From positions 1 to 25,499 of the IMG/VR virus record IMGVR_UViG_2778261277_000016: DNA of 25,499 bases. One strand, 5' to 3'. Positions 742 through 21,034 of this stretch are shown piece by piece. The notes under the pieces are model-generated. The model ran no database searches. It was not told the DNA's origin and saw only the letters and a list, made by a program, of their open reading frames with translations. The position numbers were made by a program, and so were the translations under genes. Each line of letters begins with the position of its first letter. The stretch's first letter is position 1. Source of the DNA: a virus. Lineage: Duplodnaviria > Heunggongvirae > Uroviricota > Caudoviricetes.

Positions 742-1407
742 TCAATTTTTAAGAGCACTGATACAGAAAAATTGCATGACATTTTTCTTTATTGATTTAA
801 ATAAGCTAAACATTGTGACAGGTTCAAAGCTAGTTAACTCGATGAATTCCTCTCTCATTTGAGAAAGTAACAGCTGACGTACTGATTCAATTTCTGCTGT
901 TTGTTTTCTCAAATATCTTGAGAAAACAAGTAGTTCATCAGCTGTTTTGTTTTGGCCATTTATAAACGTAACAGGTTGCCCTGGCTTAGATATGAGAAAA
1001 AATTGGTTAATTTTATCAAGTAATGGTGGAATTATTTTTTTCCATTCAGCCCATTCTTTTTCACGATGAAACTCCAGACTGTGCTGACATGTTCTTAGTT
1101 GCTGTCTATCAATCGCCCAGACCTCACTCTCATCGAGGCAATCTTTCCATTTGCTAATTACATTAATGTCAAATTTTTTGTTCGGTAGATAATTATCTTT
1201 GGCGTGCGCTTCCAGTATAGAGGCAAGAGTACCTGTATATTGCATCAAATTGGTAGATGCTCGGTTTACTAGCTCTGATATTCGATCTAGTTGAGTTGTT
1301 CTAATCTCAAGTGCTTTCTTTTTACGTTCATTTCGTAAAGCAAAATATGCAGCAAGGCAGACTGCAGCAACTGTGGCTGCTGGTGCGATAAAAATTTGCA
1401 TATTCAT
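742..1407 (-). CDS. Hypothetical membrane-anchored protein (AT-rich cargo gene between D and ogr), about 221 aa
   Basis: Long ORF in a visibly AT-rich stretch flanked by GC-rich phage genes. N-terminal hydrophobic helix IFIAPAATVAAVCLAAYFAL followed by a basic patch RNERKKK. AAGGA lies 8 nt before the ATG at 1405-1407; the ORF could extend to 1431. No homolog recognised. Confidence 0.6.
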   Translation of the reverse strand: MNMQIFIAPAATVAAVCLAAYFALRNERKKKALEIRTTQLDRISELVNRASTNLMQYTGTLASILEAHAKDNYLPNKKFDINVISKWKDCLDESEVWAIDRQQLRTCQHSLEFHREKEWAEWKKIIPPLLDKINQFFLISKPGQPVTFINGQNKTADELLVFSRYLRKQTAEIESVRQLLLSQMREEFIELTSFEPVTMFSLFKSIKKNVMQFFCISALKN

Positions 1408-1601
1408 AACATGGATCCTTTGACATGGCATTTATGGGGGCTATTTCAGCAGTAATCATTTGTGTGTAAATTTGTTTGCTACAAATTAACATATTCTAAT
1501 GTAAGGCTCTTCTGATTTTGACACCGGGTAGGCTGTCAGATTGGTTATGATTCTTGCTGTAAGCGCGTTAGCAAATGTCAGGGCTAATGCATCTAAGTTG
1601 T

Positions 1602-2711
1602 TTACTCTGTTTCTGCTATCCATTCCGGGATTTTGGCTTCAAGCTCAAGCTGCGTGGTAAAGCCACTGTTATCAATGGTGTGCTCGGCTTTTGCAATAAT
1701 CCAGTCCTGATTATCAATTTCGCTTTTAAATCCTGTTACCGTGCCATGCATTTCGGGGTAGAGTTCTGCGCGTCCACGTGCCAGTGTGATGGAGAACGCT
1801 GCGGCTCCGCGTTGTAGCTGCTGCCACTTTGCCGCCGCTGCGCGTCTTGCTGCCTGCTCGTTCTGATAAGTCTTGCGTAACACAAACACATTGCCTTCTG
1901 CGCCTTCCATATAATCACCTTCACGGCTGCTGCTTTTCTCCTTTTTGGGTTTTGGCGGTTTGCGGCGTTTCACGCTGACTTTTTTCTTTTTCCCGTAATT
2001 AAGATCAAGCCAGTAAGCGCGTACCCCCGTATACGCTTCGCGGTCAGCAATGCGGAACTGATGGCGATCGCCACTGCTGCGCGTGATGGCGAACGAGGGC
2101 AACGGCTGGCCCTGTGCGTTCACGCCACCGCCTGGCATGATGAATAACAGATTACCGCTTTTTACCGTGGTGATTGCGCCCAGCATTTCCGCCATGCGCG
2201 TAAGGAAGGACATGTCGCTTTCTTCGGTCTGGTCGGCGTGGTCGATTTCGATATCCATCAGCATTTCGCTGATTTGTGGTTTCAGACCATACCGATGAGC
2301 GATGGCGGATACCACACGCTCGAGGGTCACATCATGCCAGGACACCTCACGTTTAACGTTAAATTCATCCCGAAAATCTGCGCTTCTGGCTGAAACAGTC
2401 AGCCTGTCCGGCGGTCCTTCGTGAGCGATTTCATCAACAATGTAAGTGCCTTTTTCTGTCAGCGGTTCTCCTTTCCAGCCAATGAGAACCGTCAGGCGCG
2501 CGCCCCGTGGCGGTAGCTGCAACTGACCATCCGCATCATCCAGCGTGATGGTGAGCTGGTCCGCCTCAAATCCCCGGTTGTCGGTCAGTGACAGGCTCAT
2601 CAGGCGCTCTGCCACGCCTGACAGCGTTTTACCCTCCGCAAGAATATCAAAATCCGGCATTTTCACGGGGTCTGTGCCCTGACTGAGCAATTGCATGGTG
2701 GTATCGGTCAT
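1602..2711 (-). CDS. D: Phage tail protein D (P2 gpD family, late control gene D)
   Basis: 369-aa product; size, position before ogr and overall sequence fit P2 gpD. Start chosen at MTDTT because AGGGAGGG precedes it; the ORF track extends to 2732. Confidence 0.8.
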   Translation of the reverse strand: MTDTTMQLLSQGTDPVKMPDFDILAEGKTLSGVAERLMSLSLTDNRGFEADQLTITLDDADGQLQLPPRGARLTVLIGWKGEPLTEKGTYIVDEIAHEGPPDRLTVSARSADFRDEFNVKREVSWHDVTLERVVSAIAHRYGLKPQISEMLMDIEIDHADQTEESDMSFLTRMAEMLGAITTVKSGNLLFIMPGGGVNAQGQPLPSFAITRSSGDRHQFRIADREAYTGVRAYWLDLNYGKKKKVSVKRRKPPKPKKEKSSSREGDYMEGAEGNVFVLRKTYQNEQAARRAAAAKWQQLQRGAAAFSITLARGRAELYPEMHGTVTGFKSEIDNQDWIIAKAEHTIDNSGFTTQLELEAKIPEWIAETE

Positions 2712-2764
2712 CTTTCCCTCCCTGTGCGCCATGGTCGCATGTGCGTGCGGAGGGGGTTACTGCT

Positions 2765-2792
2765 TTTTGTTGTCGCCGTGGTGGGAGAACGG
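2765..2792 (+). promoter_or_regulatory. Candidate late-promoter activator box TTTTGTTGT-N12-AGAACGG upstream of FI
   Basis: TTTTGTTGT cgccgtggtggg AGAACGG, centred about 89 bp before the FI ATG. A near-identical box lies upstream of P (21938-21965). Resembles, but is not identical to, the P2 Ogr site TGT-N12-ACA. Confidence 0.3.
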
Positions 2793-2867
2793 CGCAGGGG
2801 TGAGATTACGCGCGTGGTGGGTGATGATTGTTGCCGAATCATTTAACGGATACAAGGGGCTGAAGCT

Positions 2868-4052
2868 ATGAGTGAAACTCGTTTTCATGGTGCCCGTGTC
2901 ACGGAAAGTACCGACCTGGTAACAGCGATTAATGATGTTGATTCCAGCGTTATCGGTATCGTGGCAACGGCGGATGATGCGGACGCGAAGCTGTTCCCGC
3001 TGAACAAGCCCACACTGCTGACCCGCGTCAATGACGTGCTGGGAAAATGCGGAACAACGGGGACGCTTTATCGTGCGCTTAAGGCCATCGCAGACCAGGT
3101 GAGCACAAAGGTGATCGTCGTTCGCGTGGCTGAACACAAAGAAGAAGACGGAAAGACGCAGGATCAACTGGTTATCGGTGGTTCTGAGGATGACGGCAGC
3201 TATACGGGGATGTATGCGCTGCTTGTTGCAGAGCAGGATGAAAGCATCGGATACCGTCCGCGTATTCTGGCCGCGCCGGAGCTGGACACGGAGGCGGTAA
3301 CAAAATCCCTGTGCGTGATTGCGGGTAAACTGCGCGCGTTTGTGTATGCCACATGTCATGGTTGTAACACGATGGCTGAGGCGATTGCCTACCGCCAGAA
3401 ATTCAACGAACGTGAGGTGATGCTCTTATGGCCTGACTTCATCGCCTACAACCCGAAAAGTGGCAAAAACGAAACGTTCCCCGCGCCTGCCTATGCGTGC
3501 GGCCTTCGTGCGTACATTGACCATGAGCAGGGCTGGCACAAATCATTGTCCAACGTTCCGGTTAAAAATGTGCTGGGGATGTCGAGGCATGTGTTCTGGT
3601 CGTTGCAGGCCGAAGACAGCGATGCCAACAGCCTCAACAACAAAGAAATCACGACCATTATTCGTCGCAACGGGTTCCGCTTCTGGGGCAACCGCACACC
3701 GGAAACGAACGCCTACATCTTTGAGGTGTATACCCGAACCGCACAGGTGCTGGCTGATTCAATTGCGGAAGCGCAGTTTGAAACCATCGACAGTCCACTG
3801 ACGCCTGCGAACGTGAAGGATGTTATCAGTGCCATCAGGGCAAAACTGGATTCACTGGTTACTGCCGGGAAACTGATTGGCGCGGAGTGCTGGTATGACG
3901 TGGTGGATAACAGCACCACGGATTTACGTCAGGGGCGTGTGCGTATTCGCTACAAATATACGCCCGTTCCGCCACTGGAAGACATGGAGCTTTACCAGAC
4001 GTTTACTGATGAATTCTTTGGTCCCGCATTTGCGGTGCTGGGAGGTGCCTGA
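2868..4052 (+). CDS. FI: Tail sheath protein (P2 gpFI family)
   Basis: 394 aa, close to P2 FI size as I recall it; AAGGGG RBS; followed by the tube gene with a TGATG overlap. Confidence 0.9.
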   Translation: MSETRFHGARVTESTDLVTAINDVDSSVIGIVATADDADAKLFPLNKPTLLTRVNDVLGKCGTTGTLYRALKAIADQVSTKVIVVRVAEHKEEDGKTQDQLVIGGSEDDGSYTGMYALLVAEQDESIGYRPRILAAPELDTEAVTKSLCVIAGKLRAFVYATCHGCNTMAEAIAYRQKFNEREVMLLWPDFIAYNPKSGKNETFPAPAYACGLRAYIDHEQGWHKSLSNVPVKNVLGMSRHVFWSLQAEDSDANSLNNKEITTIIRRNGFRFWGNRTPETNAYIFEVYTRTAQVLADSIAEAQFETIDSPLTPANVKDVISAIRAKLDSLVTAGKLIGAECWYDVVDNSTTDLRQGRVRIRYKYTPVPPLEDMELYQTFTDEFFGPAFAVLGGA

Positions 4053-4564
4053 TGGCTGTACCAAAACATCTTCGCTTTTTTACGCTGTTTGTGGATGGTG
4101 AAAACGAAGTGGGTAAGGTGACGTCCGTCACTCTGCCTAAGCTGACGCGCAAAACCGACAGCTACCGGGGTGGTGGCATGATGGGTGCGGTAAGTATTGA
4201 TCTCGGTCTGGACGACTCCGCGCTTGATGCGAGCTTTGTCATGGGGGGCGCAGTTCGTGAGCTGTTCCTTAAGTATGGCGGCACGATTGACGGCACGCTG
4301 CTGCGTTTTGCGGGTGAATACTACACCGATGCAGAAAGCGACCTGTATGAAGTCGAAATGCGCGGACGTGTGACGGAAATTGATATGGGGGAAGCCAAAC
4401 AGGGCGAAGCCACATCACACACTTACGCCATTAAAAACACCTACTACAAGCTGAGTGTTAACGATCGCCCGTTGTGGGAGATTGACCTGCTGAACTTCAT
4501 CTACCGGAAGGACGGCAAGGACATTGTGCCTGACCGTATCCGTTCCGCGCTTGGGCTTGGCTGA
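4052..4564 (+). CDS. FII: Tail tube protein (P2 gpFII family)
   Basis: 170 aa; GGAGGTG RBS; canonical position between sheath and the E/E' chaperone. Confidence 0.9.
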   Translation: MAVPKHLRFFTLFVDGENEVGKVTSVTLPKLTRKTDSYRGGGMMGAVSIDLGLDDSALDASFVMGGAVRELFLKYGGTIDGTLLRFAGEYYTDAESDLYEVEMRGRVTEIDMGEAKQGEATSHTYAIKNTYYKLSVNDRPLWEIDLLNFIYRKDGKDIVPDRIRSALGLG

Positions 4565-4618
4565 TAAGTAATATGCAGGCGGCGCAGTGCGTCGCCTCTG
4601 ACTGAAAGGAGTTTCCTG

Positions 4619-4984
4619 ATGAAAGAGACGAAAAACATCGATACCGAAAACACGGTAGTTACTGACACTGTGAAAGAAACCAGTGAGCGTGGCGTAAAAC
4701 TTACCCAACCAATTGAGCGAGGTGGCGAAAAAATCACGTATGTGGAGATCACCGGGGCTATTGAGCAGGCTGGATCTCTGCGAGATTTGTCGCTGTCTGA
4801 TGTGCTGAATCTGAAAGCGGAATCCATGTTTACGCTGCTGTCACGCGTGACATCACCGCGACTGGATGAAGTGACGATCAAAAAAATGGCATCCCGTGAC
4901 TTTATTCAGTTATGTGTGGTTGCCGTAAATTTTTTGAGCGGTGCGGACTCTGGCGGGAAGAACGAACAGGCGACGGAAGCCTGA
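4619..4984 (+). CDS. E: Tail assembly chaperone E (frame-0 product)
   Basis: 121-aa ORF with AAGGAG RBS directly upstream of the tape-measure gene; contains the slippery heptamer near its 3' end. Confidence 0.8.
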   Translation: MKETKNIDTENTVVTDTVKETSERGVKLTQPIERGGEKITYVEITGAIEQAGSLRDLSLSDVLNLKAESMFTLLSRVTSPRLDEVTIKKMASRDFIQLCVVAVNFLSGADSGGKNEQATEA

Positions 4985-5148
4985 TCACGGTTGTGTGCTT
5001 TGAGCACATAGAAGACTTTGTGGCGGATATTGCCGCCATTTTTAACTGGTCGCCCGCCGAAATCTTCATGATGACGCCCGGCGAAGTGGTTAGCTGGCGT
5101 GAGCGGGCGGCACTTCGCAGCGGGAATGCAGACAATGAAGACTCTTGA
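4619..5148 (+). CDS. E+E' fusion chaperone made by programmed -1 frameshift
   Basis: The -1 frame ORF (4912-5148) continues from the slippery T-TTT-TTG at 4930-4936. Frame arithmetic checked: E codons start at 4931 and 4934, the E' frame reads from 4930. This is the conserved P2 E/E' (lambda G/GT-like) arrangement. Confidence 0.6.
4930..4936 (+). other. Slippery heptamer TTTTTTG for the -1 ribosomal frameshift
   Basis: AAATTTTTTGAG at the point where the E frame and the -1 E' frame overlap. Confidence 0.6.
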
Positions 5149-7942
5149 TATCCGGGTCGCTTTCAGCGCCGTTGACAGGCTGACCCGGCCTGCCGAAAAC
5201 GCCCGCCGCCTGATGGGGCAGTTTGGTGACTCCATCCAGCGAACGCAGGGGGCGATCAAAAATCTCGAGCGTCAGGCGCGATCATTTGAGCGCGCCCGTG
5301 ACGCTGTCAGTAAAGCGGATGCGGGCATCGTGAAAGCACGACGCCAGCTTAACGCCCTTAATCAGTTACAACGCACGGGTACAGTGCTCAGCGAAAAACA
5401 ACAAAAGCTGATGCAGCAGTTAAGCACCCGGCTTGAACGCCTGAATGAATCGCGCACACGGGAAATTCAGAAAATGCGGGAGCTTGGCGGAGAGCTGAAA
5501 CGCCACGGCATTTCCCTGACAGGCAGCGATAACACCATCCAGCAGGCCATCAGACGCACCGAACAGTACAACAACCAGCTTGAACGCGAACGGCAGGCGC
5601 TTGCGCGTGTAACACGGGCGCGTGAGCGGTATTCGCGCGCGCAGGAAACAGCGGGAAAACTGAAAACAGGTGGTGCGCTGGCAATTGGTGCGGCAGCGGC
5701 GGGCGGCTATGCTGCCGGGCGTTTTTTGCAGCCTGCGATCGGGTTCGGCAAAGAGATGTCCCGCGTTCAGGCACTGACGCGAATCGACCAGAACAGCCCG
5801 CAGTTTAAGGCGCTGCGTGAGCAGGCGTTAAAACTTGGCTCTGAAACGCAGTTCACCGCAGGCGATGCCGCCAGTGGACAGGCATTTCTTGCAATGGCTG
5901 GCTTTACACCACAGGCCATTCAGGCTGCGCTCCCTGGCGTACTGAGCATGGCAACGGCTGGCGGTATGGACCTCGGTGAGACGGCGGATATTGGCTCAAA
6001 TATTCTGACGCAGTTCGGTCTTTCTGCTGACCAGATGGACCGGGTCGGCGACACACTCACCGCAGCGTTTACCCGTACCAACACTGACCTTCGCGCACTG
6101 GGTGAAACCATGAAATATGCAGGTCCGGTGGCGGGTAAGCTGGGAATATCGCTGGAGCAGGCCGCAGCGATGGCGGGCGTGCTGGCGAATATGGGTATCA
6201 GGGGGAGTGATGCTGGTACGGCAATGCGTGCCAGCCTGGCTCGTCTGGCATCACCGCCAAAGGCGGCAGCAGAGGCGCTGAAAGAGCTTGGCGTGTCTGT
6301 CTCGGATGCCGGGGGCAAAATGCGCCCGATGGAGGATGTGCTGGCTGACCTTTATAAAGCTACCCGCAAATACGGGGAAGTTGACCGGGTATCGTTCTTT
6401 AAGGACATTGCCGGAGAAGAGGCTTTCACATCATTTATGGCCCTCGTTGATGCGGCAGGTGACGGCTCCTTACCCAAACTGAGAAAAGAACTTGAAGGCG
6501 CGCGCGGTGAGGCTGAACGCACGGCAAAGGTTATGGCCAACAACCTTGACGGCGATCTGAAATCACTCAGCAGTGCATGGGAAGGGTTGCGCATCCGCAT
6601 TGCAGATCTGATTGACGGTCCGCTGCGTTCTGTCACGCAGTGGCTCACGCGTGTGGTATCAAAGGTGACGGCGCTGGCGCAGGCCCATCCCGCACTGACG
6701 CGCCAGCTACTGATTGCAGGCGGTGCACTGCTGGCAATGACTGCAACGGTTGGCTCGTTGTCGCTGGCTATTGGTGTGCTTGCTGGCCCGCTGGCAAAAC
6801 TGCGTCTTGGTTTTTCCCTCCTGACCGGATCAATGAATGCTGTCAGGGTTCTGCCAGCACTATGGGGAATGGTGACGGGTTCCGTTTCTTTACTGGGAGG
6901 CGCTATCGGGGCGTTGTTCAGTCCGGTTGGTCTTATCGTGGCTGCGCTTGCCGGAGCTGCCGTTCTTATCTGGAAATACTGGGATCCCATCAGGGCATTT
7001 TTTGCCTGGGTGTTCAGCGGGATTATGGAAAGGCTGACCCCGTTGCGCGAAACCTTTGAACGGTTTGGTCCTGTTTTTGACGCAATCGGGAGTGGGATCA
7101 GCCAGGTGTTTAACTGGTTTAAATCGCTGCTGTCACCGATGGAGTCCAGCAAGGAAACTCTGGATAAATGTACCAGTGCTGGCGAGATATTCGGTAACGT
7201 TCTTGGCGGTGCGTTACAACTTGTTCTGACACCTGCAAAAATGTTGCTGGATACGCTGGCGTGGATACTTGAAAAGCTTGGTGTGCTTCCGGATGAAGCG
7301 GAAAGGGCGCGCAAGAAAATCGAAGACGCACAGCGTGCGGCCATTCTTCAGGACAAGGTTGCCTTGCTTCAGGGGGACCTGGCGAAAATCAATCCGCCGA
7401 AGCCTGTGGAAAATGGCAATGGCACCGGAGGTGATAACCCCAAAGACAATAAACCGCTCACAGACAGCAATACCGGTACGCTGCGCAGACTCAGCAAAAT
7501 TGCTGATAACACAGGTAAGCTGGTTGAGGAGACGAAAAAACGCATTGGCCCCGGCGATATTGTCTTTAAAAACCTGCCCCGAGCACTTGCTGTTCGTGGG
7601 GAGTGGCAGGAGCGGAAGATTGCGCAGGTCAGTAAGCCTGCCCCCGCAATTAATATCACACCCGTGGTCCCGGCTCCGCTGCCTCCGGCGCTGGTCCCTG
7701 TTGTTGCGGCCAGCTCCCGCCCGGTGGCGGAGGCTATACGATCTCCAGTGGCATCAGTTCCTGTAACTTCCCGTAACCGGGAGCCTGTTGCCTCCGGATT
7801 TGGTGGTGAAATTCATGTTCATCTGCATAACGTTGTTACGCAGAATCCCCGCGAACTGGCGAAACTGGTCGGTGAAATGGTCAGGGCAGAAATGGAACGG
7901 CGCGCCCGTGCCGGGCGTGGCAGTTTTTACGATAAAGATTGA
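5126..7942 (+). CDS. T: Tail tape measure protein (P2 gpT family)
   Basis: Very long ORF (about 940 aa) with an N-terminal coiled-coil-like region, central Gly/Ala-rich hydrophobic segments and a Pro/Val-rich C-terminus, directly after E/E'. Start is uncertain: GTG 5099, ATG 5126 or ATG 5135. Confidence 0.85.
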   Translation: MQTMKTLDIRVAFSAVDRLTRPAENARRLMGQFGDSIQRTQGAIKNLERQARSFERARDAVSKADAGIVKARRQLNALNQLQRTGTVLSEKQQKLMQQLSTRLERLNESRTREIQKMRELGGELKRHGISLTGSDNTIQQAIRRTEQYNNQLERERQALARVTRARERYSRAQETAGKLKTGGALAIGAAAAGGYAAGRFLQPAIGFGKEMSRVQALTRIDQNSPQFKALREQALKLGSETQFTAGDAASGQAFLAMAGFTPQAIQAALPGVLSMATAGGMDLGETADIGSNILTQFGLSADQMDRVGDTLTAAFTRTNTDLRALGETMKYAGPVAGKLGISLEQAAAMAGVLANMGIRGSDAGTAMRASLARLASPPKAAAEALKELGVSVSDAGGKMRPMEDVLADLYKATRKYGEVDRVSFFKDIAGEEAFTSFMALVDAAGDGSLPKLRKELEGARGEAERTAKVMANNLDGDLKSLSSAWEGLRIRIADLIDGPLRSVTQWLTRVVSKVTALAQAHPALTRQLLIAGGALLAMTATVGSLSLAIGVLAGPLAKLRLGFSLLTGSMNAVRVLPALWGMVTGSVSLLGGAIGALFSPVGLIVAALAGAAVLIWKYWDPIRAFFAWVFSGIMERLTPLRETFERFGPVFDAIGSGISQVFNWFKSLLSPMESSKETLDKCTSAGEIFGNVLGGALQLVLTPAKMLLDTLAWILEKLGVLPDEAERARKKIEDAQRAAILQDKVALLQGDLAKINPPKPVENGNGTGGDNPKDNKPLTDSNTGTLRRLSKIADNTGKLVEETKKRIGPGDIVFKNLPRALAVRGEWQERKIAQVSKPAPAINITPVVPAPLPPALVPVVAASSRPVAEAIRSPVASVPVTSRNREPVASGFGGEIHVHLHNVVTQNPRELAKLVGEMVRAEMERRARAGRGSFYDKD

Positions 7943-7948
7943 GGAGTC

Positions 7949-8443
7949 ATGGCCATGATGATGATCTACGGCATGTTTGTTTTTGAGCTGCGCACGCTGC
8001 CGCATCAGCAGTTACAGCAAAACAAAAGCTGGCGGCATGTGAAAAATGAACGCGTTAACCGTTCAGCAAGCTGGCAGTATATCGGTGCAGGTGATGATCG
8101 CATCGTTCTTTCTGGTGTGCTTTATCCTGAAATTACAGGTGGCGAAGTGTCGCTGTCGCTGCTGACCACGCAGGCGTATACAGGACGACCCTGGCCTTTG
8201 ATTGATGGTGTCGGGCAGATTTACGGCATGTATGTCCTGACCGGAACGAATACGACCCGCTCCGAGTTTGATCGCTACGGTAAGGCGAAAAAGATAGAAT
8301 TTTCACTGACTCTTGAACGCTGTGATGAGGATTTGCGGGAGCGCCTGCAATCCTCATCGTTCAGTGATATGCTGTCCGGCTTCAAAGATAAGGTCACATC
8401 ATCCCTTAACAGCGCGGCCAGCTCCGTTAACGGGCTGTTTTGA
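7949..8443 (+). CDS. U: Tail protein U (P2 gpU family)
   Basis: 164 aa; motifs such as MYVLTGTN...KIEFSLTLERCDE resemble P2 gpU from memory. True start may be the ATG at 7955, which has better spacing from the GAGGAG RBS. Confidence 0.85.
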   Translation: MAMMMIYGMFVFELRTLPHQQLQQNKSWRHVKNERVNRSASWQYIGAGDDRIVLSGVLYPEITGGEVSLSLLTTQAYTGRPWPLIDGVGQIYGMYVLTGTNTTRSEFDRYGKAKKIEFSLTLERCDEDLRERLQSSSFSDMLSGFKDKVTSSLNSAASSVNGLF

Positions 8444-8450
8444 TTAACGC

Positions 8451-8488
8451 AAAACCGCTAATGGTCAGATTAGCGGTTTTCATTTTCC
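8451..8488. terminator. Bidirectional hairpin terminator between U and the invertase fragment
   Basis: Perfect 12-bp inverted repeat AAAACCGCTAAT(8451-8462)/ATTAGCGGTTTT(8469-8480) with a 6-nt loop, followed by CATTTTCC on +. Sits between convergent genes. Confidence 0.5.
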
Positions 8489-8775
8489 TGAGTCTGCCTG
8501 GTTGTTTCTTCAGCCTGTATATCGCCTACAGGGTGATAACGATAAATCGTCGATATGCCGATGTCGTAAATGATCGCCAGTTGTTTCCTGTCATGACCGT
8601 TTTTAATCAGCCTCGCTATTTGTTCGTGTTGTTCTTTTGTCAACTTCGGGCGACGTCCGCCAATGCGTCCTTGTGCGCGTGCTGCTGCCAGCCCGGCCAG
8701 TGTACGCTCTACAATTAATTCATGTTCCATTTCGGCTAAAGCTCCCATGACGTGAAAAAAGAAACGCCCCATGGG
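8470..8775 (-). pseudogene. Truncated serine-invertase paralog (C-terminal half only)
   Basis: Translation PMGRFFFHVMGALAEMEHELIVERTLAGLAAARAQGRIGGRRPKLTKEQHEQIARLIKNGHDRKQLAIIYDIGISTIYRYHP matches the C-terminal half of the adjacent invertase with a handful of substitutions. DNA similarity stops near 8775; the catalytic N-terminus is absent and there is no convincing RBS. Confidence 0.6.
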
Positions 8776-8860
8776 TGTTGATTGATGCGCCGCGCGATAA
8801 ACGTACCTATTTCCGTGAGATAAATTACATCGCCGCGGCATTTCAATATCAGAAAAAGAA

Positions 8861-9433
8861 TTACAAATCAGCTTGAGTTTGAAGTTCCTCTACAGGGTGA
8901 TAACGATAAATCGTCGATATACCGATATCGTAAATAATTGCCAACTGTTTCCTGCTATAGCCATTTTTGATCAGCCTTGCTATTTGTTCATGTTGCTCTT
9001 TTGTCAGTTTCGGACGACGTCCACCAATACGCCCCTGTGCACGTGCTGCTTCAAGTCCGGCCAGTGTTCGTTCAACTATTAATTCACGCTCCATTTCCGC
9101 TAAAGCCCCCATGACGTGAAAAAAGAAACGTCCCATGGGTGTTGACGTATCAATGCTGTCTGTAAGACTACGGAAGTTAACCCCTTTTTCCCGCAGTTCC
9201 TCAATAAGAGTGATGAGGTGTTTCATGCTTCTGCCCAGCCTGTCCAGCTTCCAGACAACGAGCGTATCTCCTTCTGATAACGTTCTGAGCAGCTTTTTCA
9301 ATCCCGGTCGGGCTGACTTTGTTCCGCTGATTTTATCCTCAAAAATCAGTTCACATCCTGCGCAGTTCAGTGCGTTTCGTTGTAAATCTGTATTCTGGTC
9401 ATTTGTTGACACACGAATGTAGCCAATTTGCAT
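8861..9433 (-). CDS. Serine DNA invertase, Gin/Hin/Pin/Cin/Min family
   Basis: Starts MQIGYIRVSTNDQNTDLQRNAL, the canonical N-terminus of this family with the catalytic Ser in RVST. Also has TLVVWKLDRLGRS, SLTDSIDTS and a C-terminal HTH (GISTIYRYHP). AAAGAGGA RBS 8 nt before the ATG. The ORF track's upstream extension to 9628 is rejected. Confidence 0.9.
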   Translation of the reverse strand: MQIGYIRVSTNDQNTDLQRNALNCAGCELIFEDKISGTKSARPGLKKLLRTLSEGDTLVVWKLDRLGRSMKHLITLIEELREKGVNFRSLTDSIDTSTPMGRFFFHVMGALAEMERELIVERTLAGLEAARAQGRIGGRRPKLTKEQHEQIARLIKNGYSRKQLAIIYDIGISTIYRYHPVEELQTQADL

Positions 9434-9487
9434 GAAAAATATCCTCTTTGTTTTGTTAAAAATACATAGCTGGTATAGGTGGGAGTT

Positions 9488-9513
9488 AAGACGAAAACGT
9501 TGGTTTGGGGGAA
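9488..9513. repeat. Candidate 26-bp invertase crossover site (cassette 1)
   Basis: AAGACGAAAACG-TT-GGTTTGGGGGAA. Right half-site is identical in all five sites; overall shape resembles hixL TTCTTGAAAACC-AA-GGTTTTTGATAA from memory. Confidence 0.5.
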
Positions 9514-9936
9514 GGCTCAGCGCTGCCCGTTGGTGTGCCCGTTCCGTGGCCCTCAGCCACACCGCCAGCAGGGTGGCTGAAATGTAACGGCGCAGCATTT
9601 TCTTCTGAAATGTACCCCAATCTGGCAAAGGCTTATCCTACAAATAAATTACCGGATTTACGGGGTGAGTTTATTCGCGGCTGGGATGACGGGCGGGGAA
9701 TTGATTCAGGACGCACTCTACTTTCGTTACAGGGCGATATGTTTAAATCGCACAGTCATTACTTCCGTGAAATATGGGGTGCAAATGGACCAGATGGAAC
9801 TGGTGGACCGTACATTGTCGGGGCGGATACAAACGGTTCGAGAATAAATTTAGGCACTATAGAAACCAGTGCACCTGGTGGTTCAGAAACCCGTCCCCGT
9901 AACATTGCATTTAATTACATCGTAAGAGCGGCATAG
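9505..9936 (+). CDS. Silent tail-fibre C-terminal cassette 1 (tail-collar-like domain, HxH-containing); promoterless gene segment
   Basis: No ATG or RBS (the ORF track begins at TTG inside the crossover site). Conserved N-part GEGSALPVGVPVPWPSATPP.GWLKCNGAAFSSEMYP.LAKAYPTNKLPDLRGEFIRGWDDGRGID, variable middle, conserved end RPRNIAFNYIVRAA; the same ends occur in the expressed H gene. Confidence 0.75.
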   Translation: MGEGSALPVGVPVPWPSATPPAGWLKCNGAAFSSEMYPNLAKAYPTNKLPDLRGEFIRGWDDGRGIDSGRTLLSLQGDMFKSHSHYFREIWGANGPDGTGGPYIVGADTNGSRINLGTIETSAPGGSETRPRNIAFNYIVRAA

Positions 9937-9955
9937 AAACGTTGGTTTGGGGGAA
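9930..9955. repeat. Candidate crossover site (cassette 2)
   Basis: GGCATAGAAACG-TT-GGTTTGGGGGAA; the left half-site contains the stop codon of cassette 1. Confidence 0.5.
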
Positions 9956-10414
9956 GGCTCGGCGCTGCCCGTTGGTGTGCCTGTTCCGTGGCCCTCAGCC
10001 ACACCACCAACGGGCTGGCTGAAATGTAACGGTGCAGCATTTTCTTCTGAAATGTATCCCAAACTGGCAAAAGCTTACCCCACCAATAAATTACCGGATT
10101 TACGGGGTGAATTTATTCGTGGCTGGGATGATGGGCGGGGAATTGATAATAGACGCAACCTACTGTCTGCACAGTCTGACACTATTCAGAATATAGTTGG
10201 CACTTTTGGACGAACTCAGCTTTTTAAAGATGCTTTAAATTCAGGGCCATTTAGTCAAACTGACTCTATATTATCAGTAGGCTTGCAACCAACTGAGAAT
10301 ATTGAAGGATATGGCGCCTCTGTATGGACATTCGACGCCTCTCGCTCAGTTCGCACAGCATCTGAAACACGTCCTCGTAACATTGCGTTTAATTACATCG
10401 TAAGGGCGGCATAG
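9947..10414 (+). CDS. Silent tail-fibre C-terminal cassette 2 (no HxH, AT-rich variable core)
   Basis: Same conserved ends as cassette 1; variable core NRRNLLSAQSDTIQNIVGTF... is unrelated to cassettes 1 and 4; in a different reading frame from cassette 1. Confidence 0.75.
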   Translation: MGEGSALPVGVPVPWPSATPPTGWLKCNGAAFSSEMYPKLAKAYPTNKLPDLRGEFIRGWDDGRGIDNRRNLLSAQSDTIQNIVGTFGRTQLFKDALNSGPFSQTDSILSVGLQPTENIEGYGASVWTFDASRSVRTASETRPRNIAFNYIVRAA

Positions 10415-10433
10415 AAACGTTGGTTTGGGGGAA
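10408..10433. repeat. Candidate crossover site (cassette 3)
   Basis: GGCATAGAAACG-TT-GGTTTGGGGGAA, identical to the cassette 2 and 4 sites. Confidence 0.5.
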
Positions 10434-10886
10434 GGCTCTGCACTACCTGTTGGTGTGCCTGTTCCATGGCCGTCAGCCACACCGCCAACAGGGTGGCTGA
10501 AATGTAACGGTGCAGCATTTTCTTCTGAAATGTACCCCAATCTGGCAAAGGCTTACCCCACGAATAAATTACCGGATTTACGGGGCGAATTTATCCGTGG
10601 CTGGGATGACGGACGAGGTATTGATGCAGGACGAGAGATACTTTCATTTCAGGAAGGCACTATCGTCTCCGGTTTTGATGATAATGATACTGGGGATATC
10701 AGTTCACTTAGCTCAACACAATACGGATTTGGTGACACTCTAACCTCTAATCAATGGGGGGCCATAAATGGCAAAAAGTGGATATTTGATGCATCCAGTA
10801 AAGGTGCACAAAAATATGACTGGCGGGCTTATGTATCAGCTCGTCCGCGTAATATTGCATTTAATTACATCGTAAGAGCGGCATAG
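10425..10886 (+). CDS. Silent tail-fibre C-terminal cassette 3 (no HxH)
   Basis: Same conserved ends; unique variable core AGREILSFQEGTIVSGFDDNDTGD... Confidence 0.75.
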   Translation: MGEGSALPVGVPVPWPSATPPTGWLKCNGAAFSSEMYPNLAKAYPTNKLPDLRGEFIRGWDDGRGIDAGREILSFQEGTIVSGFDDNDTGDISSLSSTQYGFGDTLTSNQWGAINGKKWIFDASSKGAQKYDWRAYVSARPRNIAFNYIVRAA

Positions 10887-10905
10887 AAACGTTGGTTTGG
10901 GGGAA
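10880..10905. repeat. Candidate crossover site (cassette 4)
   Basis: GGCATAGAAACG-TT-GGTTTGGGGGAA. Confidence 0.5.
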
Positions 10906-11400
10906 GGCTCTGCACTACCCGTTGGTGTGCCTGTTCCGTGGCCCTCAGCCACACCGCCAACAGGGTGGCTGAAATGTAACGGCGCAGCATTTTCTTCTGA
11001 AATGTACCCCAAACTGGCAAAGGCTTACCCCACCAATAAATTACCGGATTTACGGGGTGAGTTTATTCGTGGCTGGGATGATGGGCGGGGAATTGATTCA
11101 GGGCGTTCCTTGCTTAATGCACAATCACATTCGGTTATAGATCATATTCATTATATGGAGTTATGGACTGGTGAAGGGCTTGCCGCAAACAACACCCGTG
11201 CAGGAACAAACCCTGGTATACTGGCTACATACGGTGATGGCGGGATTGTTAAAACAGATGAGTCAGGTGTAAAAGTTCCATCTTCACTACGTGCTATTGG
11301 CACTCGTGGTGTTTATAGATTAGGTGCCAACGGAGGGAATACAGGAACGGAAAACCGCCCCCGTAATATTGCGTTTAACTATATTGTAAGGGCTACTTAA
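10897..11400 (+). CDS. Silent tail-fibre C-terminal cassette 4 (HxH-containing), coupled to the downstream tail-fibre assembly gene
   Basis: Same conserved ends; variable core contains HIHYMELW; its stop overlaps the next gene's start as TAATG (11398-11402). Confidence 0.75.
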   Translation: MGEGSALPVGVPVPWPSATPPTGWLKCNGAAFSSEMYPKLAKAYPTNKLPDLRGEFIRGWDDGRGIDSGRSLLNAQSHSVIDHIHYMELWTGEGLAANNTRAGTNPGILATYGDGGIVKTDESGVKVPSSLRAIGTRGVYRLGANGGNTGTENRPRNIAFNYIVRAT

Positions 11401-12017
11401 TGAATAATGCTGCTGCAGTACTTGATCAGAATGGTATCGCTATAACTGCAGGCGATATTACCGTTTATAACTACGATGCTGAAAACCGTGAATATCTCTC
11501 TGCCACTGTTGAGTATCTCGCTTATGGTGTTGGAATTCCGGCTCACTCATGCATTGACGCGCCACCAGAAAAACGCCCCGGCTTCGCTGTCTGTCGTGAT
11601 ACCGACCAGAACATCTGGAAATATGTTCCAGACCACAGAGGCGAAACGGTTTACAGCACAGAGAATGGTAACGCTGTGCAAATCACACAACCGGGAGATT
11701 ACCCTCCTGATACGACGGTGAAACAGCCAGCTACTATCTATGATGTCTGGGATGGTGAGATTTGGGTGACAGATACGAGACGACAGCACGCAGCAGAACT
11801 GGAAGCTGCCGGAGCGCATCGTCAGCAACTTGAGGAACAGGCAATGGCATCTGTTGAGCTTATTAATCTCAAACTACGAGCCGGACGCCGATTGACGCCC
11901 CAGGAGACGGAAAAACTAAACGCCGTGCTTGATTTCATAGATACGCTTAATGCGACTGACATCAGCACTGCACCGGATATCAACTGGCCGGAAATGCCTC
12001 TGGCAGCAGCCAGTTGA
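11400..12017 (+). CDS. Tail fibre assembly protein (Tfa family; P2 gpG / Mu U analogue)
   Basis: 205 aa; translationally coupled to cassette 4 with an AAGGG RBS; family assignment is from memory of Tfa-like proteins (short conserved N-terminus, Asp/Pro-rich regions, coiled-coil segment) and from its position beside the fibre cassettes. Confidence 0.75.
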   Translation: MNNAAAVLDQNGIAITAGDITVYNYDAENREYLSATVEYLAYGVGIPAHSCIDAPPEKRPGFAVCRDTDQNIWKYVPDHRGETVYSTENGNAVQITQPGDYPPDTTVKQPATIYDVWDGEIWVTDTRRQHAAELEAAGAHRQQLEEQAMASVELINLKLRAGRRLTPQETEKLNAVLDFIDTLNATDISTAPDINWPEMPLAAAS

Positions 12018-12023
12018 GTATAA

Positions 12024-13541
12024 TTAAGCCGCCCTCACGATATAGTTAAATGCGATATTGCGGGGGCGAGTTTCACTACCACCAGTGTTACCAATACTCC
12101 CTCGTGAATGAAGTGTCGGTGATGGGATCAGACTCCCGCCTGTACTTGTGGCATCAAGTCCCCGTCCTTGTGTATATGTTTTTTTGAAAATTGTGGCCAA
12201 CTCCCATTCATCCTTTGTGTCATACCCATCGTTAGCTACAACAATATGGCGGTGTTTTTCCAGCATCCCAGTTTGAAAGCTTAATAAAGCACGTCCTGCA
12301 TCAATCCCTCGCCCGTCATCCCAGCCACGAATAAACTCGCCCCGTAAATCCGGTAATTTATTGGTGGGGTAAGCCTTTGCCAGTTTGGGGTACATTTCAG
12401 AAGAAAATGCTGCACCGTTACATTTCAGCCACCCTGTTGGCGGTGTGGCTGAGGGCCACGGAACAGGCACACCAACGGGTAGTGCAGAGCCTTCCCCCAA
12501 ACCAAGGTATGCGAGAAGACCAGCTACATCCTTTCCACTCAAATTGGTAAGCGTATTGTCCAGCGGTTGTTTACCTGCCAGCGCACTAAGCATTGTCGTG
12601 GCAAAGTTCGGATCATTCCCCAGTGCCGCAGCCAGTTCGTTCAGCGTGTTCAGTGCATCAGGTGACGAATCTACAAGTGCGGCAATCGCGGCCATAACGA
12701 AAGCCGTGCTTGCGATCTGGGTACTATTAGTCCCCTGTGGCGCTGTTGGTGTTGTTGGCATTCCGGTCAGTGCCGGGCTGTTTAATGGTGCTTTCTTGCT
12801 CGTTTCATCCATTACCGCCTTAACAGCTTTTGGTGTCGCTGCCAGCGTTTCAGACGTGCTGTTCGTGGCGCTACTGAGCTGAACAATCCCTTTTTGTGTT
12901 GTGGTGGCGTTCTGGGCGGTATATTTCCCGTCAGCCAGGTCATATGCAGCCTTAACTGCTTTCGGTGTTGCGGCCAGTGTTTCTGATTCACTGTTAATTG
13001 CACTGCTTAACTGAGTAAAACCTTTTGCGGTCAGCGAGGCGTCCGGGTGACGTCGTGACTGTTCGTGCTCTGAGATTTTATCATCCACATATTTGCGGGT
13101 TGCCAGAACCACCGACGGGTCGATTTTCAGCGTGATGGCTTCGGTATTCGTGACAACCAGAATCATGCGGATAGTCTGGGTGCGTCCACTGCCTTCCTGC
13201 AACTGCGGTTTGTACGTTTCCGGGCAGTTTGCCACCGCAATGAGTACACCTTCATCATCATAAAGACCAATCTCACGGATCCAGAATCCTCCCTCGTTTT
13301 CAGGGATGATTTGCTCCGCAATAATCTGGCTCTGATTGTTAGGGTCAACACTCAGAAGATTCAGCGGTGCAATGCGTTTCTGGTTAATCAGTTTTGTTTG
13401 TGCAGGGTCTGGTGTTGGTAACACACCATTTGCATCACCAACGGCCATTTGCGTCAGATTCAGCTTACTGCCGAGCATCGTCGCGTTAGCCAGTCGTGCT
13501 GCGCCCTGATTAGTCAGAATGGCGTAGTATTTCACTGTCAT
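12024..13541 (-). CDS. H: Tail fibre protein H, currently expressed variant (P2 gpH-like N-terminus fused to a tail-collar-type C-terminal cassette)
   Basis: N-terminal portion through EHEQSRRHPDASLTAKGFTQLSSA...ETLAATPKAVKA matches P2 gpH from memory. The C-terminal 155 aa begin ...LGLGEGSALPVGVPVPWPSATPPTGWLKCNG and end RPRNIAFNYIVRAA, the same frame as the silent cassettes on the opposite strand. Confidence 0.9.
   Translation of the reverse strand: MTVKYYAILTNQGAARLANATMLGSKLNLTQMAVGDANGVLPTPDPAQTKLINQKRIAPLNLLSVDPNNQSQIIAEQIIPENEGGFWIREIGLYDDEGVLIAVANCPETYKPQLQEGSGRTQTIRMILVVTNTEAITLKIDPSVVLATRKYVDDKISEHEQSRRHPDASLTAKGFTQLSSAINSESETLAATPKAVKAAYDLADGKYTAQNATTTQKGIVQLSSATNSTSETLAATPKAVKAVMDETSKKAPLNSPALTGMPTTPTAPQGTNSTQIASTAFVMAAIAALVDSSPDALNTLNELAAALGNDPNFATTMLSALAGKQPLDNTLTNLSGKDVAGLLAYLGLGEGSALPVGVPVPWPSATPPTGWLKCNGAAFSSEMYPKLAKAYPTNKLPDLRGEFIRGWDDGRGIDAGRALLSFQTGMLEKHRHIVVANDGYDTKDEWELATIFKKTYTQGRGLDATSTGGSLIPSPTLHSRGSIGNTGGSETRPRNIAFNYIVRAA
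12492..12517. repeat. Candidate crossover site inside H (constant/variable junction), inverted relative to the cassette sites
   Basis: + strand reads TTCCCCCAAACC-AA-GGTATGCGAGAA, i.e. on the - strand TTCTCGCATACC-TT-GGTTTGGGGGAA. Homology with the cassettes begins exactly at the TT core, inside the CTT codon of ...AYLGLGEGS. Confidence 0.55.
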
Positions 13542-14146
13542 GCGTTTACTCTCAGATTATCAATTAAATGAATGGCCGGGGCAGGGAAATAATCCCCTTC
13601 GACAATAATGGACTCCGGGGTGTAGGGATAAACCGTCAGGGCATCGCCGTGATAGCATCCCGTACCAACGAAAATCTTTCCGTTCACACTCAGGCTGATC
13701 GCCAGCCCCGTCAGATGGCGACTTACTGGTTTTGCATCCGCAATAAGGCGCTCAAGTTCCTGATACATTTCATCGGTGATGCCCTGATCAAGTACTCCGA
13801 CAACAATGCGAAATGTTCCTGGCTCCTCGTTGAGTTGCCACCACTCCTTTACTTCAATCAGGTAGCCGAGAGGCTCCACGGCTCTTCGCAGTGCGCTGAT
13901 GGTCCCTTTGTGTCGGTGTATCAGCCATGCATCACGAATTACCTGTCGCTTTGTCTCTTCCGGCCAGTTGCGATCCCAGCGGTCAACGGAAAACGCCCAG
14001 GCGAAATAAGGCAGCAGATGCACCGGGCAGGTGTCCGGCGACCACAGCGTGTTGAGGTCTACCGGGATGTCTGTAATGCGCGTTCCGACAGCTTCGGCAT
14101 AACGCATGAAATTGCTGGCTGATGGCGGTAACAGTGAATTACTCAT
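13538..14146 (-). CDS. I: Baseplate/tail protein I (P2 gpI family)
   Basis: Position between J and H; start set at MSNSLLPP (ATG 14144-14146), which overlaps the J stop; the ORF track extends to 14200. Confidence 0.8.
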   Translation of the reverse strand: MSNSLLPPSASNFMRYAEAVGTRITDIPVDLNTLWSPDTCPVHLLPYFAWAFSVDRWDRNWPEETKRQVIRDAWLIHRHKGTISALRRAVEPLGYLIEVKEWWQLNEEPGTFRIVVGVLDQGITDEMYQELERLIADAKPVSRHLTGLAISLSVNGKIFVGTGCYHGDALTVYPYTPESIIVEGDYFPAPAIHLIDNLRVNA

Positions 14147-15035
14147 TACGCCCACCTTCGCTGATGGTGAATGACTCACAGCGCGCCGCCTGTATGTCAC
14201 TGATGGCCATATTCTGTGTGGGTTCGATTATCTCCACGCGTTGCACGCCGTGTACATGAAGTGCGGCAGCAATGGCGGACAACGCCACGTCCTGACCGAT
14301 AAGCCCCTGTTCAGCCAGCCACTTCCTGAATGACGATTCCGCCGCGGCCAGAATAGGTTCGGATTCCGGACCGGGGTAAAAGTACAGTTTTGCATTCAGC
14401 CGCCATGTCACGATGCTGGCGCTCTGTACGGTCAGGCGGTCGGCCACCGGGCGGGTATCCTCTGCATTCAGAACGGCGCGAACGGTATTAAGCAACGCCT
14501 CCGTTGCTGTGCCGTCGCCCTCAGTGGACAGTATGGAAACCGTCACGTTGGCCGGAGACGGGCTGATGGCTCGCGCGTCGCGTACCAGACCGCTGGCGCT
14601 GCGTGCAAAATACTCGTATGCGCCTGACGGGCCAGCAACACTCAGACCGTCATACGCCCGTTGCGCCCGCAGTCTCAGCGAGGTGTCGCTTTCCATCACC
14701 GCGTCGGTGGTATCCGTTGCCGGAGTGATAACCAGGCGCTTTGTGTTCATATTACCCGCGAGGTTGTCCAGGTCTGTCCCGGCGCTGTGGCTTAACATGC
14801 AGGCGCGTGCACCCTCATTGACCCGCTGGCGTAACAGCATTTCACGAAACGCTGTTGTCTGGGCGATAACGTTCAGAGGTTCCGATTCCAGCTCCAGCGC
14901 AGCGGAGACGGCTTCACGCTGTTCGGCGGGATAAGCCGCAATCATCATGGCCTTTGTGTCAGCCAGAATTGCCTCAAAGTCAGGCTCCGCGATGATGGCG
15001 GGTTCCGGTAACTGGGAAAGGTCAACGGCGGGCAT
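14139..15035 (-). CDS. J: Baseplate assembly protein J (P2 gpJ family)
   Basis: 298 aa; canonical W-J-I-H order. Confidence 0.85.
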   Translation of the reverse strand: MPAVDLSQLPEPAIIAEPDFEAILADTKAMMIAAYPAEQREAVSAALELESEPLNVIAQTTAFREMLLRQRVNEGARACMLSHSAGTDLDNLAGNMNTKRLVITPATDTTDAVMESDTSLRLRAQRAYDGLSVAGPSGAYEYFARSASGLVRDARAISPSPANVTVSILSTEGDGTATEALLNTVRAVLNAEDTRPVADRLTVQSASIVTWRLNAKLYFYPGPESEPILAAAESSFRKWLAEQGLIGQDVALSAIAAALHVHGVQRVEIIEPTQNMAISDIQAARCESFTISEGGRNE

Positions 15036-15038
15036 GAT

Positions 15039-15389
15039 TTACTCCCTCAGCGTGATGGTTAATTCAACATTCTGCATGGTCTGCATGACAGTGCCCGACA
15101 GCGTCACCCCGGCGCGGCCTCCCGCTTTCCAGACAACATCGATGGCGTCCAGGGCAATGCGGGGTTCCCATCGTGTCAGCGCAATCACGGCAGCACTCAT
15201 GCATTGCAGACGCGTGGTGTTATTCATGGGTTCGTCAATCAAATCAGGCACAAGGCTGCCATATTCCCGTCGCATAACCCGGCTTGCCAGCGGGGTGGTC
15301 AGGATGTCCCTGACTGACTGTTTCAGGTGCTCCATATCGTTCAGGTTTCCCGTCCCGTCCGGGTTCATTCCTGTGTAGCGGGTTGTCAC
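15039..15389 (-). CDS. W: Baseplate wedge protein W (P2 gpW, T4 gp25-like)
   Basis: 116 aa; position and size fit. Confidence 0.85.
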   Translation of the reverse strand: MTTRYTGMNPDGTGNLNDMEHLKQSVRDILTTPLASRVMRREYGSLVPDLIDEPMNNTTRLQCMSAAVIALTRWEPRIALDAIDVVWKAGGRAGVTLSGTVMQTMQNVELTITLRE

Positions 15390-15967
15390 TGCGGGCCTCC
15401 TGTCGAATCGCTGCCACCTTTAACGCCACCGTGCTTATGCGTATGCACTGTGATGCCGTTTGAGGTGAAGTCGCCGCCGCTGTGCGTGATATTGCCGCTC
15501 ATCTTTCCCCCTTTTGTGACGTCAAGCGTCGCCGTTCTCAGAAGGTTTGTGCATTCCACGACAGGCGTGTCCAGTTTCACGCTGACGGATGCCTGTAAAG
15601 TGGCCGTTTTCATGCCGCTGGCGCTCAGTGCGCCTGCGTCCGCGTCGTAGCGGAACACCGCGCCGTCCGGCGCGCTGATCACGATTTCTTTCAGGCTTTT
15701 GCCGGGGGCCGGACTGGCATCACTCCACAGGCTGCCAATTATCATGGCGGTTTCCGGGTTGCCGCCAATGCAGGCAATTACCACCTGTTCGCCTGGTGAT
15801 GGCGGCAGCCACACATTGAAGGCTCCCGCGCGCGTGGTGTTCCAGCGCAGCCAGCCTGTTTCCAGTTCGCCGCTGCGAACGCGCACGCGCCAGGACTTCT
15901 CATCAACTTCAGAGATGATCCCGGTGCGGATGATATTGCTCAGCAGTCGCATGAGTTCTGCGCTCAC
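15386..15967 (-). CDS. V: Baseplate spike/assembly protein V (P2 gpV family)
   Basis: 193 aa with a Gly-rich C-terminus; ATGA-type overlaps with both neighbours. Confidence 0.85.
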   Translation of the reverse strand: MSAELMRLLSNIIRTGIISEVDEKSWRVRVRSGELETGWLRWNTTRAGAFNVWLPPSPGEQVVIACIGGNPETAMIIGSLWSDASPAPGKSLKEIVISAPDGAVFRYDADAGALSASGMKTATLQASVSVKLDTPVVECTNLLRTATLDVTKGGKMSGNITHSGGDFTSNGITVHTHKHGGVKGGSDSTGGPQ

Positions 15968-18313: not shown

Positions 18314-18315
18314 TG

Positions 18316-19010: not shown

Positions 19011-19023
19011 GGGGTTCACTCCT

Positions 19024-19096: not shown

Positions 19097-19112
19097 CTGA
19101 CGGGGTCAGTCG

Positions 19113-19913: not shown

Positions 19914-19930
19914 TTTTTCTCTCCGTTACA

Positions 19931-19949: not shown

Positions 19950-19958
19950 GTGAGTTGA

Positions 19959-21011: not shown

Positions 21012-21034
21012 AAAAAATTTGCTCCTTTGTCTTA

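Follow-up and report, generated by a model that had tools for sequence, protein, structure and literature searches.

The truncated invertase-like reading frame that adjoins the intact invertase gene of this prophage is very probably an insertion scar: a Mu-like phage would have entered the invertase gene of a resident P2-like prophage, and a later deletion would have left a graft of its DNA in place, together with a stub of the interrupted gene that is most likely a pseudogene. The identities of all the segments and the positions of both boundaries of the foreign DNA are observed directly. Both boundaries are precise to the base, one being the terminus of a transposable phage within the recipient's invertase gene and the other, on the opposite side, a tail-fibre crossover site. 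That the fragment might be a recombination scar from module exchange at this locus was one of the readings offered in the initial annotation, and it is this reading that the analysis supports. The window, by which we mean the whole stretch of DNA analysed, 25,499 nucleotides in length, represents a P2-like prophage of the P88 / Xuanwuvirus type; its features are collected in Table 1.

Table 1. Positions and basis of assignment of features in the window
Feature	Position	Strand	Basis or remark
gpD	1602-2732	-	Left side of window
Sheath, tube and tape measure genes	2868-7942	+	Left side of window
gpU-like tail gene, resident P2-like (P88-like) prophage	7949-8443	+	Pfam Phage_P2_GpU, E = 1.5e-38; marks native invertase position
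Hairpin between convergent gpU and resident invertase	8451-8480	.	Terminator scan, 12-pair stem; identical in intact P88-like prophages
Chimeric ORF	8470-8841	-	Mu-end-derived codons in-frame with invertase remnant; 123 aa
Resident invertase 3' remnant	8470-8782	-	Codons 97-199 and stop; helix E, linker, HTH_7; intact gene is 7027-7626 of the E. coli 300709 locus (L005)
Right end (attR-type terminus) of Mu-like (BcepMu/phiE255-type) transposable phage	8783-8860	.	100% identity to complete prophage boundaries
Intact invertase (190 aa, Gin-type serine recombinase), Mu-like phage origin	8861-9433	-	Complete Resolvase and HTH_7; M-17 match
Cassette array with assembly gene	9498-12017	+	95-99.6% to M-17 Mu-like prophage, other cassette order
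Four Mu-derived tail-fibre C-terminal cassettes	9505-9936, 9947-10414, 10425-10886, 10897-11400	+	Pfam Collar
Tail-fibre assembly gene, Mu-derived	11400-12017	+	Pfam Caudo_TAP
Fifth Mu-derived cassette, now fused to resident gene H	12024-12508	-	10842-12508 is 99.6% to M-17
Constant N-terminal part of tail-fibre gene H, resident P2-like prophage	12509-13541	-	Pfam Phage_tail_fib, Phage_fiber_2
Tail-fibre gene H, then baseplate, head and terminase genes	H 12024-13541	H -	Right side of window

Two observations concern the prophage as a whole. Since the FI-U tail genes converge on H, unlike those of P2, an inversion of this operon was suspected; it was rejected on finding that all P88-like prophages are so arranged. 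Separately, the segment 624-1591, between the ogr-side genes and gpD, is missing from the otherwise collinear prophage of strain VTB97432v. It contains an ORF (742-1431, minus strand, 229 aa) that has no Pfam match and may be a cargo or hotspot gene.

The fragment and the resident invertase gene

The 123-aa ORF lies on the minus strand at 8470-8841 and begins 19 nt past the stop codon of the invertase (8861-8863), in the same orientation. Local alignment of the two genes yields a single ungapped block of 256 nt, 8526-8781 against 8890-9145, with 35 mismatches (86.3% identity), and the BLAST E value of 2e-84 for the pair shows that the similarity is not due to chance. The initial annotation had counted five mismatches in 54 nt by eye and proposed a full nucleotide alignment as a check; the longer comparison is in agreement with that count and establishes the similarity as real. 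At the protein level, residues 21-105 of the ORF differ from residues 97-181 of the intact invertase at 4 of the 85 positions, two of the differences separating the DNA-binding regions of stub and active invertase. The similarity comes to a sharp end at 8781/8782, and the first 20 or so codons of the ORF have no match in the intact gene.

Pfam comparison defines what has been kept. Of the Resolvase profile, only positions 104-144, the last 41, corresponding to helix E, are matched, whereas HTH_7 at the C-terminus is complete (E = 7.7e-13, profile positions 1-43 of 45). Both Pfam and the alignment indicate that the catalytic resolvase domain, with its nucleophilic serine near residue 10, is absent, residues 1-96 of the resident protein being missing; lacking this domain, the fragment cannot be an invertase. 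The ORF layout, the alignment and the domain content thus uphold the original description of a C-terminal-only copy of the invertase beside the full gene.

The origin of the fragment is revealed by comparison with other prophages. Immediately after gpU, P88-like prophages have one invertase gene. The segment 8444-8782 is 99.4% identical (2 differences in 339 nt) to the genes for intact 199-aa invertases in about 100 complete E. coli genomes, which have this gene at the same position, beside gpU and with the same hairpin. In the P88-like locus of E. coli 300709 (L005), the segment corresponds to 7001-7339, and the order of gpU, hairpin and invertase is identical. The remnant therefore has the attributes of the resident invertase: it is convergent with and directly downstream of gpU, it shares the hairpin and it is near-identical in sequence. 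One of the two differences from strain 300709, at 8623, is synonymous; the other, at 8723, replaces a conserved arginine of helix E, in the motif EMERELIV, by histidine. Native P88-like sequence is continuous up to 8782 and diverges from 8783 onwards into TGATGCGCCGCGCG. The hairpin, which is probably a two-way terminator, is the sole terminator-like element downstream of the incoming invertase.

These comparisons lead us to regard the fragment as the 3' remnant (residues 97-199) of the resident gene, recently broken, and not as a diverged paralog. The proposal that it is an old or horizontally acquired paralog consequently fails, since at 99.4% identity to intact P88-like invertases it is the native gene. 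The initial annotation had also named, as an outcome that would count against its reading, the presence in related prophages of an intact second gene from which the fragment had simply decayed. This was borne out in part: related prophages have one intact gene, at the position of the fragment, which makes the fragment a product of disruption.

The Mu-like terminus and the extent of the foreign DNA

From 8783 onwards, the sequence reads TGATGCGCCGCGCGATAAACGTACC. It starts 5'-TGATGCGCCGCGCGATAAAC and contains two GATAAA(C/T) motifs, at 8796 and 8819. The chimeric ORF takes its ATG (8841) and roughly its first 20 codons from this segment, so that the '22 unrelated codons' of the initial annotation are indeed without a match in the full gene, but they are not random filler, being part of the right end of a Mu-like phage. 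The assignment follows from the occurrence of the same sequence elsewhere. Sites that match the stretch 8783-8866 at 100% identity occur in ten complete E. coli genomes, each beside a recombinase gene, and the host genes adjoining these sites vary: otsA, wzz(fepE), ygjJ, an Ail/Lom gene, a 4Fe-4S protein gene and IS4321. The base at which the flanks diverge is identical from genome to genome. The prophages of strains M-17 and JNEC-KY180, which truncate otsA and wzz(fepE), respectively, each have the 8783-8860 sequence as their outer boundary.

The M-17 prophage splits otsA and is flanked on both sides by a TCCAGC target duplication. Both of its ends begin with TGAT, and each has two (C/G)GATAAA(C/T) motifs about 22 nt apart, the left end showing the same TGAT...GAGATAAAT motifs as the right. 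The element is 38.3 kb in size and encodes a DDE transposase, an ExeA-type (MuB-like) ATPase, Gam, Mor and gp16, a DUF935 portal, the Mu F and G morphogenesis proteins, P2-like tail and baseplate genes and a multi-cassette tail fibre, with the invertase as its last gene. From its gene content and ends, we assign it to the Mu-like transposable prophages of BcepMu/phiE255 type. The 8783-8860 sequence thus bounds complete transposase-encoding prophages at many unrelated sites and has, in M-17, a terminal 5'-TG, motifs common to both ends and a short target duplication. We conclude that it represents a transposable-phage right end, at which binding of the transposase is predicted.

The copy in the window is a one-ended relic. 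No left-end-like sequence was found within the window at up to 8 mismatches in 40 nt, and there is neither a partner left end nor a target duplication at this insertion, both of which would have been lost in the deletion that we propose below. A search of the phage collection found no Mu-like phage with this invertase, returning only P1-like and P88-like relatives and one ST131 record; in this prophage record, which is mis-delimited, the match is a Mu-like right end beside aroA. Searched by itself, the 37-nt right end has no exact match in species-representative genomes. A preprint on E. coli ST131 applies the name phiE255-like to such prophages and describes their co-residence with P88-like prophages, the two having homologous tail fibres and invertases and a shared repeat (bioRxiv 10.1101/2022.05.07.487787).

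The intact invertase is also of Mu-like origin. Both of its domains are complete (Resolvase, E = 1.7e-51; HTH_7, E = 1.3e-13), and it is accompanied by inverted crossover sites flanking the cassettes, as befits the Gin/Hin family of invertases. Its protein length and position equal those of the recombinase annotated at the right end of the M-17 prophage. Moreover, 8783-9520 differs from that prophage by 1 mismatch in 738 nt (99.9%), from which it follows that the intact gene belongs to the Mu-like phage. The polarity suggested by the initial annotation is accordingly reversed, the intact neighbour being the horizontally acquired copy. Its contention that this is no recent duplication holds, the two copies stemming from different lineages.

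The crossover site GAAACGTTGGTTTGGGGGAA precedes each plus-strand cassette, at 9498, 9940, 10418 and 10890. These four sites share one orientation (9498-10905), and a fifth, TTCCCCCAAACC-AA-GGTATGCGAGAA (12492-12517), is inverted. The inverted site lies inside gene H and marks the right-hand limit of Mu-like DNA: identity to M-17 ends at 12508, no more than 3 nt from the central AA of the site. BLAST comparison with the P88-like 300709 and Mu-like M-17 references divides the window into a P88-like block at 1455-8782 (95.8%), a Mu-like block at 8783-12508 (95-99.6%, with the cassettes in another order) and a second P88-like block at 12564-16061 (97% to the strain 300709 prophage). Neither reference matches 12509-12563, a short interval of gene H lying directly upstream of the crossover site. 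This interval is 96.7% identical to a 'prophage tail fiber N-terminal domain' gene of a different E. coli genome, so that a third lineage contributes to the mosaic. The graft therefore amounts to about 3.7 kb and comprises the right end, the invertase, five cassettes and the assembly gene.

The order of the cassettes differs from that in both M-17 and JNEC-KY180, as expected of a multi-site inversion system. In the current isomer, gene H (12024-13541, minus strand) is fused to the cassette at 12024-12508. The sole tail-fibre assembly gene opposes and converges on H and is not co-transcribed with the expressed fibre.

Proposed history and alternative readings

We infer that the foreign DNA was inserted by transposition because a transposon terminus sits at a non-homologous point inside an ORF; with the left end and target duplication lost, this step is read from one end only. 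The starting point would be a resident P2-like (P88-like) prophage with one 199-aa invertase gene beside gpU. A Mu-like phage would have integrated after codon 96 of this gene with its right end facing gpU, thereby joining the resident 3' part (8470-8782) to the Mu right end (8783-8860) and the Mu invertase (8861-9433). A crossover site of the Mu-like tail fibre and the site in the resident gene H would then have formed direct repeats, and recombination between them would have deleted about 35 kb, taking out the body and left end of the Mu-like phage together with the resident cassettes and the 5' half of the resident invertase gene. This would leave a hybrid site, Mu-like towards the cassette and resident towards H, as is seen. 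The reciprocal junction predicted by this scheme consists of the left end, ...CATTTATCTCATGTCTGATCA, a 5-6-bp duplicate of (G)TTGAT and then GTGTCAATGCTGTCCG. Presumably, the incoming invertase now drives cassette switching on the P2-like tail-fibre gene.

The deletion could have been the work of the invertase acting at its sites or of homologous (RecA) recombination in a conserved stretch of about 220 nt alongside. Gin/Hin-type invertases have a strong bias against deletion between direct repeats. Since inversions after the event would bring the H junction back to the crossover site in any case, the mechanism of deletion, itself an inferred step, is not readable from the sequence, and the mosaic at 12509-12563 likewise leaves it undecided between the invertase and RecA. 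No intermediate was found in which a complete Mu-like prophage still interrupts the invertase gene.

The junction is rare. The tandem invertase arrangement occurs in none of 5,426 complete E. coli genomes, the junction 24-mer GGGTGTTGATTGATGCGCCGCGCG has no matches in species-representative genomes or JGI metagenomes, and an exact look-up of the 123-aa ORF returned nothing. A homology search with this ORF, by contrast, identified a 131-aa 'partial' version (P0001) on one draft contig, annotated by NCBI as 'helix-turn-helix domain-containing protein, partial'. The contig (L007), from the draft E. coli genome GCA_054376345.1, is 3,183 nt long, is 100% identical to 5684-8866 of the window and contains the junction. 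This short-read contig stops 84 nt into Mu-like sequence, as a repeat from the Mu right end would give, which suggests that this sequence is present in the strain a second time, perhaps as part of an intact Mu-like prophage.

A sister prophage is present in the complete E. coli genome VTB97432v. It is 99.4% identical to 12292-24798 of the window, continuously across the H junction. Its single invertase gene follows the P88 type up to 8526, and from 8557 on all 35 diagnostic positions show the Mu type. A hybrid invertase of this type occurs in 1 of the 5,426 complete E. coli genomes. Judged by its sequence, it is the product expected of recombination in the 31-nt identical stretch shared by stub and intact gene (8526-8556 / 8890-8920); such an event would remove the Mu end and the stub, erasing the scar while keeping the same graft. 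The left arm of the VTB97432v prophage is only 95.8% identical to the window, and exchange with another P88-like phage is therefore an equally good route to the hybrid.

Of the alternatives, the one that survives best, though we consider it improbable, accepts the insertion and questions the fate of the stub. Here, the stub would be translated, either from an internal ATG or by coupling to the stop codon that ends the invertase gene 19 nt upstream, and the resulting helix-E and HTH protein, catalytically dead, would damp or bias inversion by binding the crossover sites or by pairing with the invertase. The frame is open for 123 codons with all of helix E and HTH_7 kept and a DNA-binding region that differs from that of the active invertase at two positions only. 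The terminator scan found no terminator between the invertase stop codon and the stub, which is thus probably co-transcribed. There is also a precedent in the isolated DNA-binding peptide of Hin, a synthetic 52-residue peptide studied by Bruist et al. in 1987, which reportedly binds hix sites and inhibits Hin. Against this, neither the ATG at 8841 nor the internal ATG at 8772 is preceded by a Shine-Dalgarno sequence, unlike the invertase, which has AGAGGA. The translation signals and the conservation across lineages to be expected of a regulator are both lacking, the junction being present in one other assembly, a draft, and in no complete E. coli genome, and the stub having been lost in the VTB97432v prophage. 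Moreover, one of the two substitutions relative to the gene of strain 300709 turns the conserved Arg of EMERELIV into His, and the open frame is explicable by chance, since the Mu end happens to add only an in-frame ATG and some 20 sense codons. From the absence of signals, the lack of conservation and the loss in the sister lineage, we are confident in regarding the stub as a pseudogene.

It is highly unlikely that the arrangement is an assembly artefact in which a P88-like prophage has been joined to a separate Mu-like prophage through their common invertase and tail-fibre repeats. The two phage types do share repeats and co-occur in E. coli (bioRxiv 10.1101/2022.05.07.487787), and the draft contig from GCA_054376345.1 ends within Mu-like sequence as if this were repeated in the genome. 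Misassemblies, nevertheless, fall inside repeats, whereas the 8782/8783 join is made without homology between the partners; the same join is found in this independently assembled contig, and the right-hand join is common to a complete genome. The occurrence of a non-homologous join in two assemblies makes misassembly unlikely.

We give equally little credence to acquisition of the module without insertion of a whole prophage, whether as a two-ended mini-element or by double crossover with homologous sequences of a co-resident Mu-like prophage. Homology for a double crossover is available in identical runs of 31 nt and 23 nt in the 3' regions of the invertases and in the cassette heads, and the structure in VTB97432v could have arisen in this way, but such exchange could not have set a Mu terminus into the invertase ORF at a point without homology. 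A two-ended mini-Mu is rejected by the absence of a left end anywhere in the window. Finally, local tandem duplication of the 3' half of the invertase gene followed by divergence or gene conversion, as the head-to-tail arrangement of two copies 86% identical might suggest, can be dismissed, because divergence cannot yield copies near-identical to different lineages (99.4% P88-like and 99.9% Mu-like) and a transposable-phage terminus occupies the 78 nt that separate them.

Recurrence, significance and relation to known systems

Insertion by a Mu-like phage, as we propose it for the window, has a possible parallel in P1-like phage-plasmids. Downstream of their invertase gene, homology to the Mu-like phage starts exactly at the terminal TG and extends at 75-87% over the end and the adjacent invertase region, and this Mu end abuts the remnant of another invertase gene on the opposite strand. 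In the E. coli plasmid p1_000837 (NZ_CP032875.1, L010 4966-5090), the remnant consists of the first 13 codons with their own ribosome-binding site; junctions of this type are present in at least 18 PLSDB plasmids. In the Punavirus vB_EcoM-673R5 (ON470615.2, L001 3761-4100), the remnant is a decayed invertase sequence of about 240 nt with stop codons. The presence of a Mu end beside invertase remnants in these elements suggests that the route recurs. We put the chances at roughly even that invertase and cassette modules are recurrently moved to unrelated backbones, P2-like here and P1-like in the plasmids, when a Mu-like phage transposes into another phage's invertase gene, or next to it, and recombination at crossover sites ensues. 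If so, the window would represent a rare and recent intermediate that keeps both the donor's terminus and the recipient's broken gene.

Invertase genes of the P88 type are broken in other ways as well. A P88-like prophage of E. coli GCA_037047765.1 (JBAICO010000001.1, L009 2024-5384; protein P0013) has its invertase split in two, with the N-terminal Resolvase half (3063-3500) overlapping the tail-fibre gene H and the C-terminal HTH half (5001-5384) still beside gpU and fused to a cassette head in antisense. This looks like the result of an inversion between a tail-fibre crossover site and a quasi-site in the invertase ORF (AEME|RELIV), which would lock the system. On a 444-kb E. coli contig, the N-terminus of a Caudo_TAP assembly protein is fused to a P88-type invertase from ...RTLAGLAAARA on (protein P0028), an indication that rearrangements sparing the 3' end of the P88-type invertase recur.

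It is long established that Mu, P1, P2-like phages, e14 and p15B share homologous tail-fibre and invertase modules that can replace one another; the movement of these modules between such phages is usually ascribed to unspecified recombination. The components of the present case, an insertion scar, a pseudogene remnant and phage mosaicism, are all of known kinds. Our literature search found no description of this junction or transfer route, and a route in which both boundaries are preserved seems to be undescribed in the literature searched. It offers a concrete and testable path for the exchange of host-range modules between unrelated phages, with the sister genome as an example in which the scar is erased, and it would make the present cassette-switching system of this prophage a foreign one. 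For annotation, the 123-aa 'HTH protein' is better recorded as a pseudogene remnant joined to a Mu-like end than as a second regulator. The stub is in itself an ordinary object, a pseudogene, yet it provides an unusually clear record of the movement of a host-range module.

Among characterised systems, the closest to the incoming module are Gin with the G segment of Mu, Cin with the C segment of P1, Pin of e14 and Min of p15B. Their invertases have the same Resolvase and HTH_7 architecture as that encoded at 8861-9433, which likewise lies beside tail-fibre cassettes bounded by 26-bp hix/gix-like sites (TTCCCCCAAACC-AA-...). The multiple-inversion system of p15B resembles the array in the window in having several sites; the order of the cassettes in the module found here varies among genomes. 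The window departs from all four in that its module resides on a P2-like backbone yet retains the terminus of the donor transposable phage, and in the presence of a fragment without a catalytic domain. The likeness to E. coli prophages of the BcepMu/phiE255 type (Bcepmuvirus) is closer still, 8783-12508 being 95-100% identical to their right end, invertase and cassettes, with the same terminal TG and repeated motifs. Only about 3.7 of some 38 kb are present here, however, with neither transposase nor left end, and the remnant is immobile.

The stub finds counterparts of two kinds. The pinH gene of E. coli K-12 is an invertase pseudogene and, like the stub, a truncated and probably non-functional piece of an invertase in prophage DNA; in the window, by contrast, the cause of the truncation is readable to the base as a Mu-like terminus, and the incoming element supplies a working replacement. 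The DNA-binding domain peptide of Hin has its equivalent in the HTH of the stub, which also retains helix E and which, if made, could bind the same sites; that peptide, however, is a laboratory construct and not a natural regulator, whereas expression of the stub is hypothetical.
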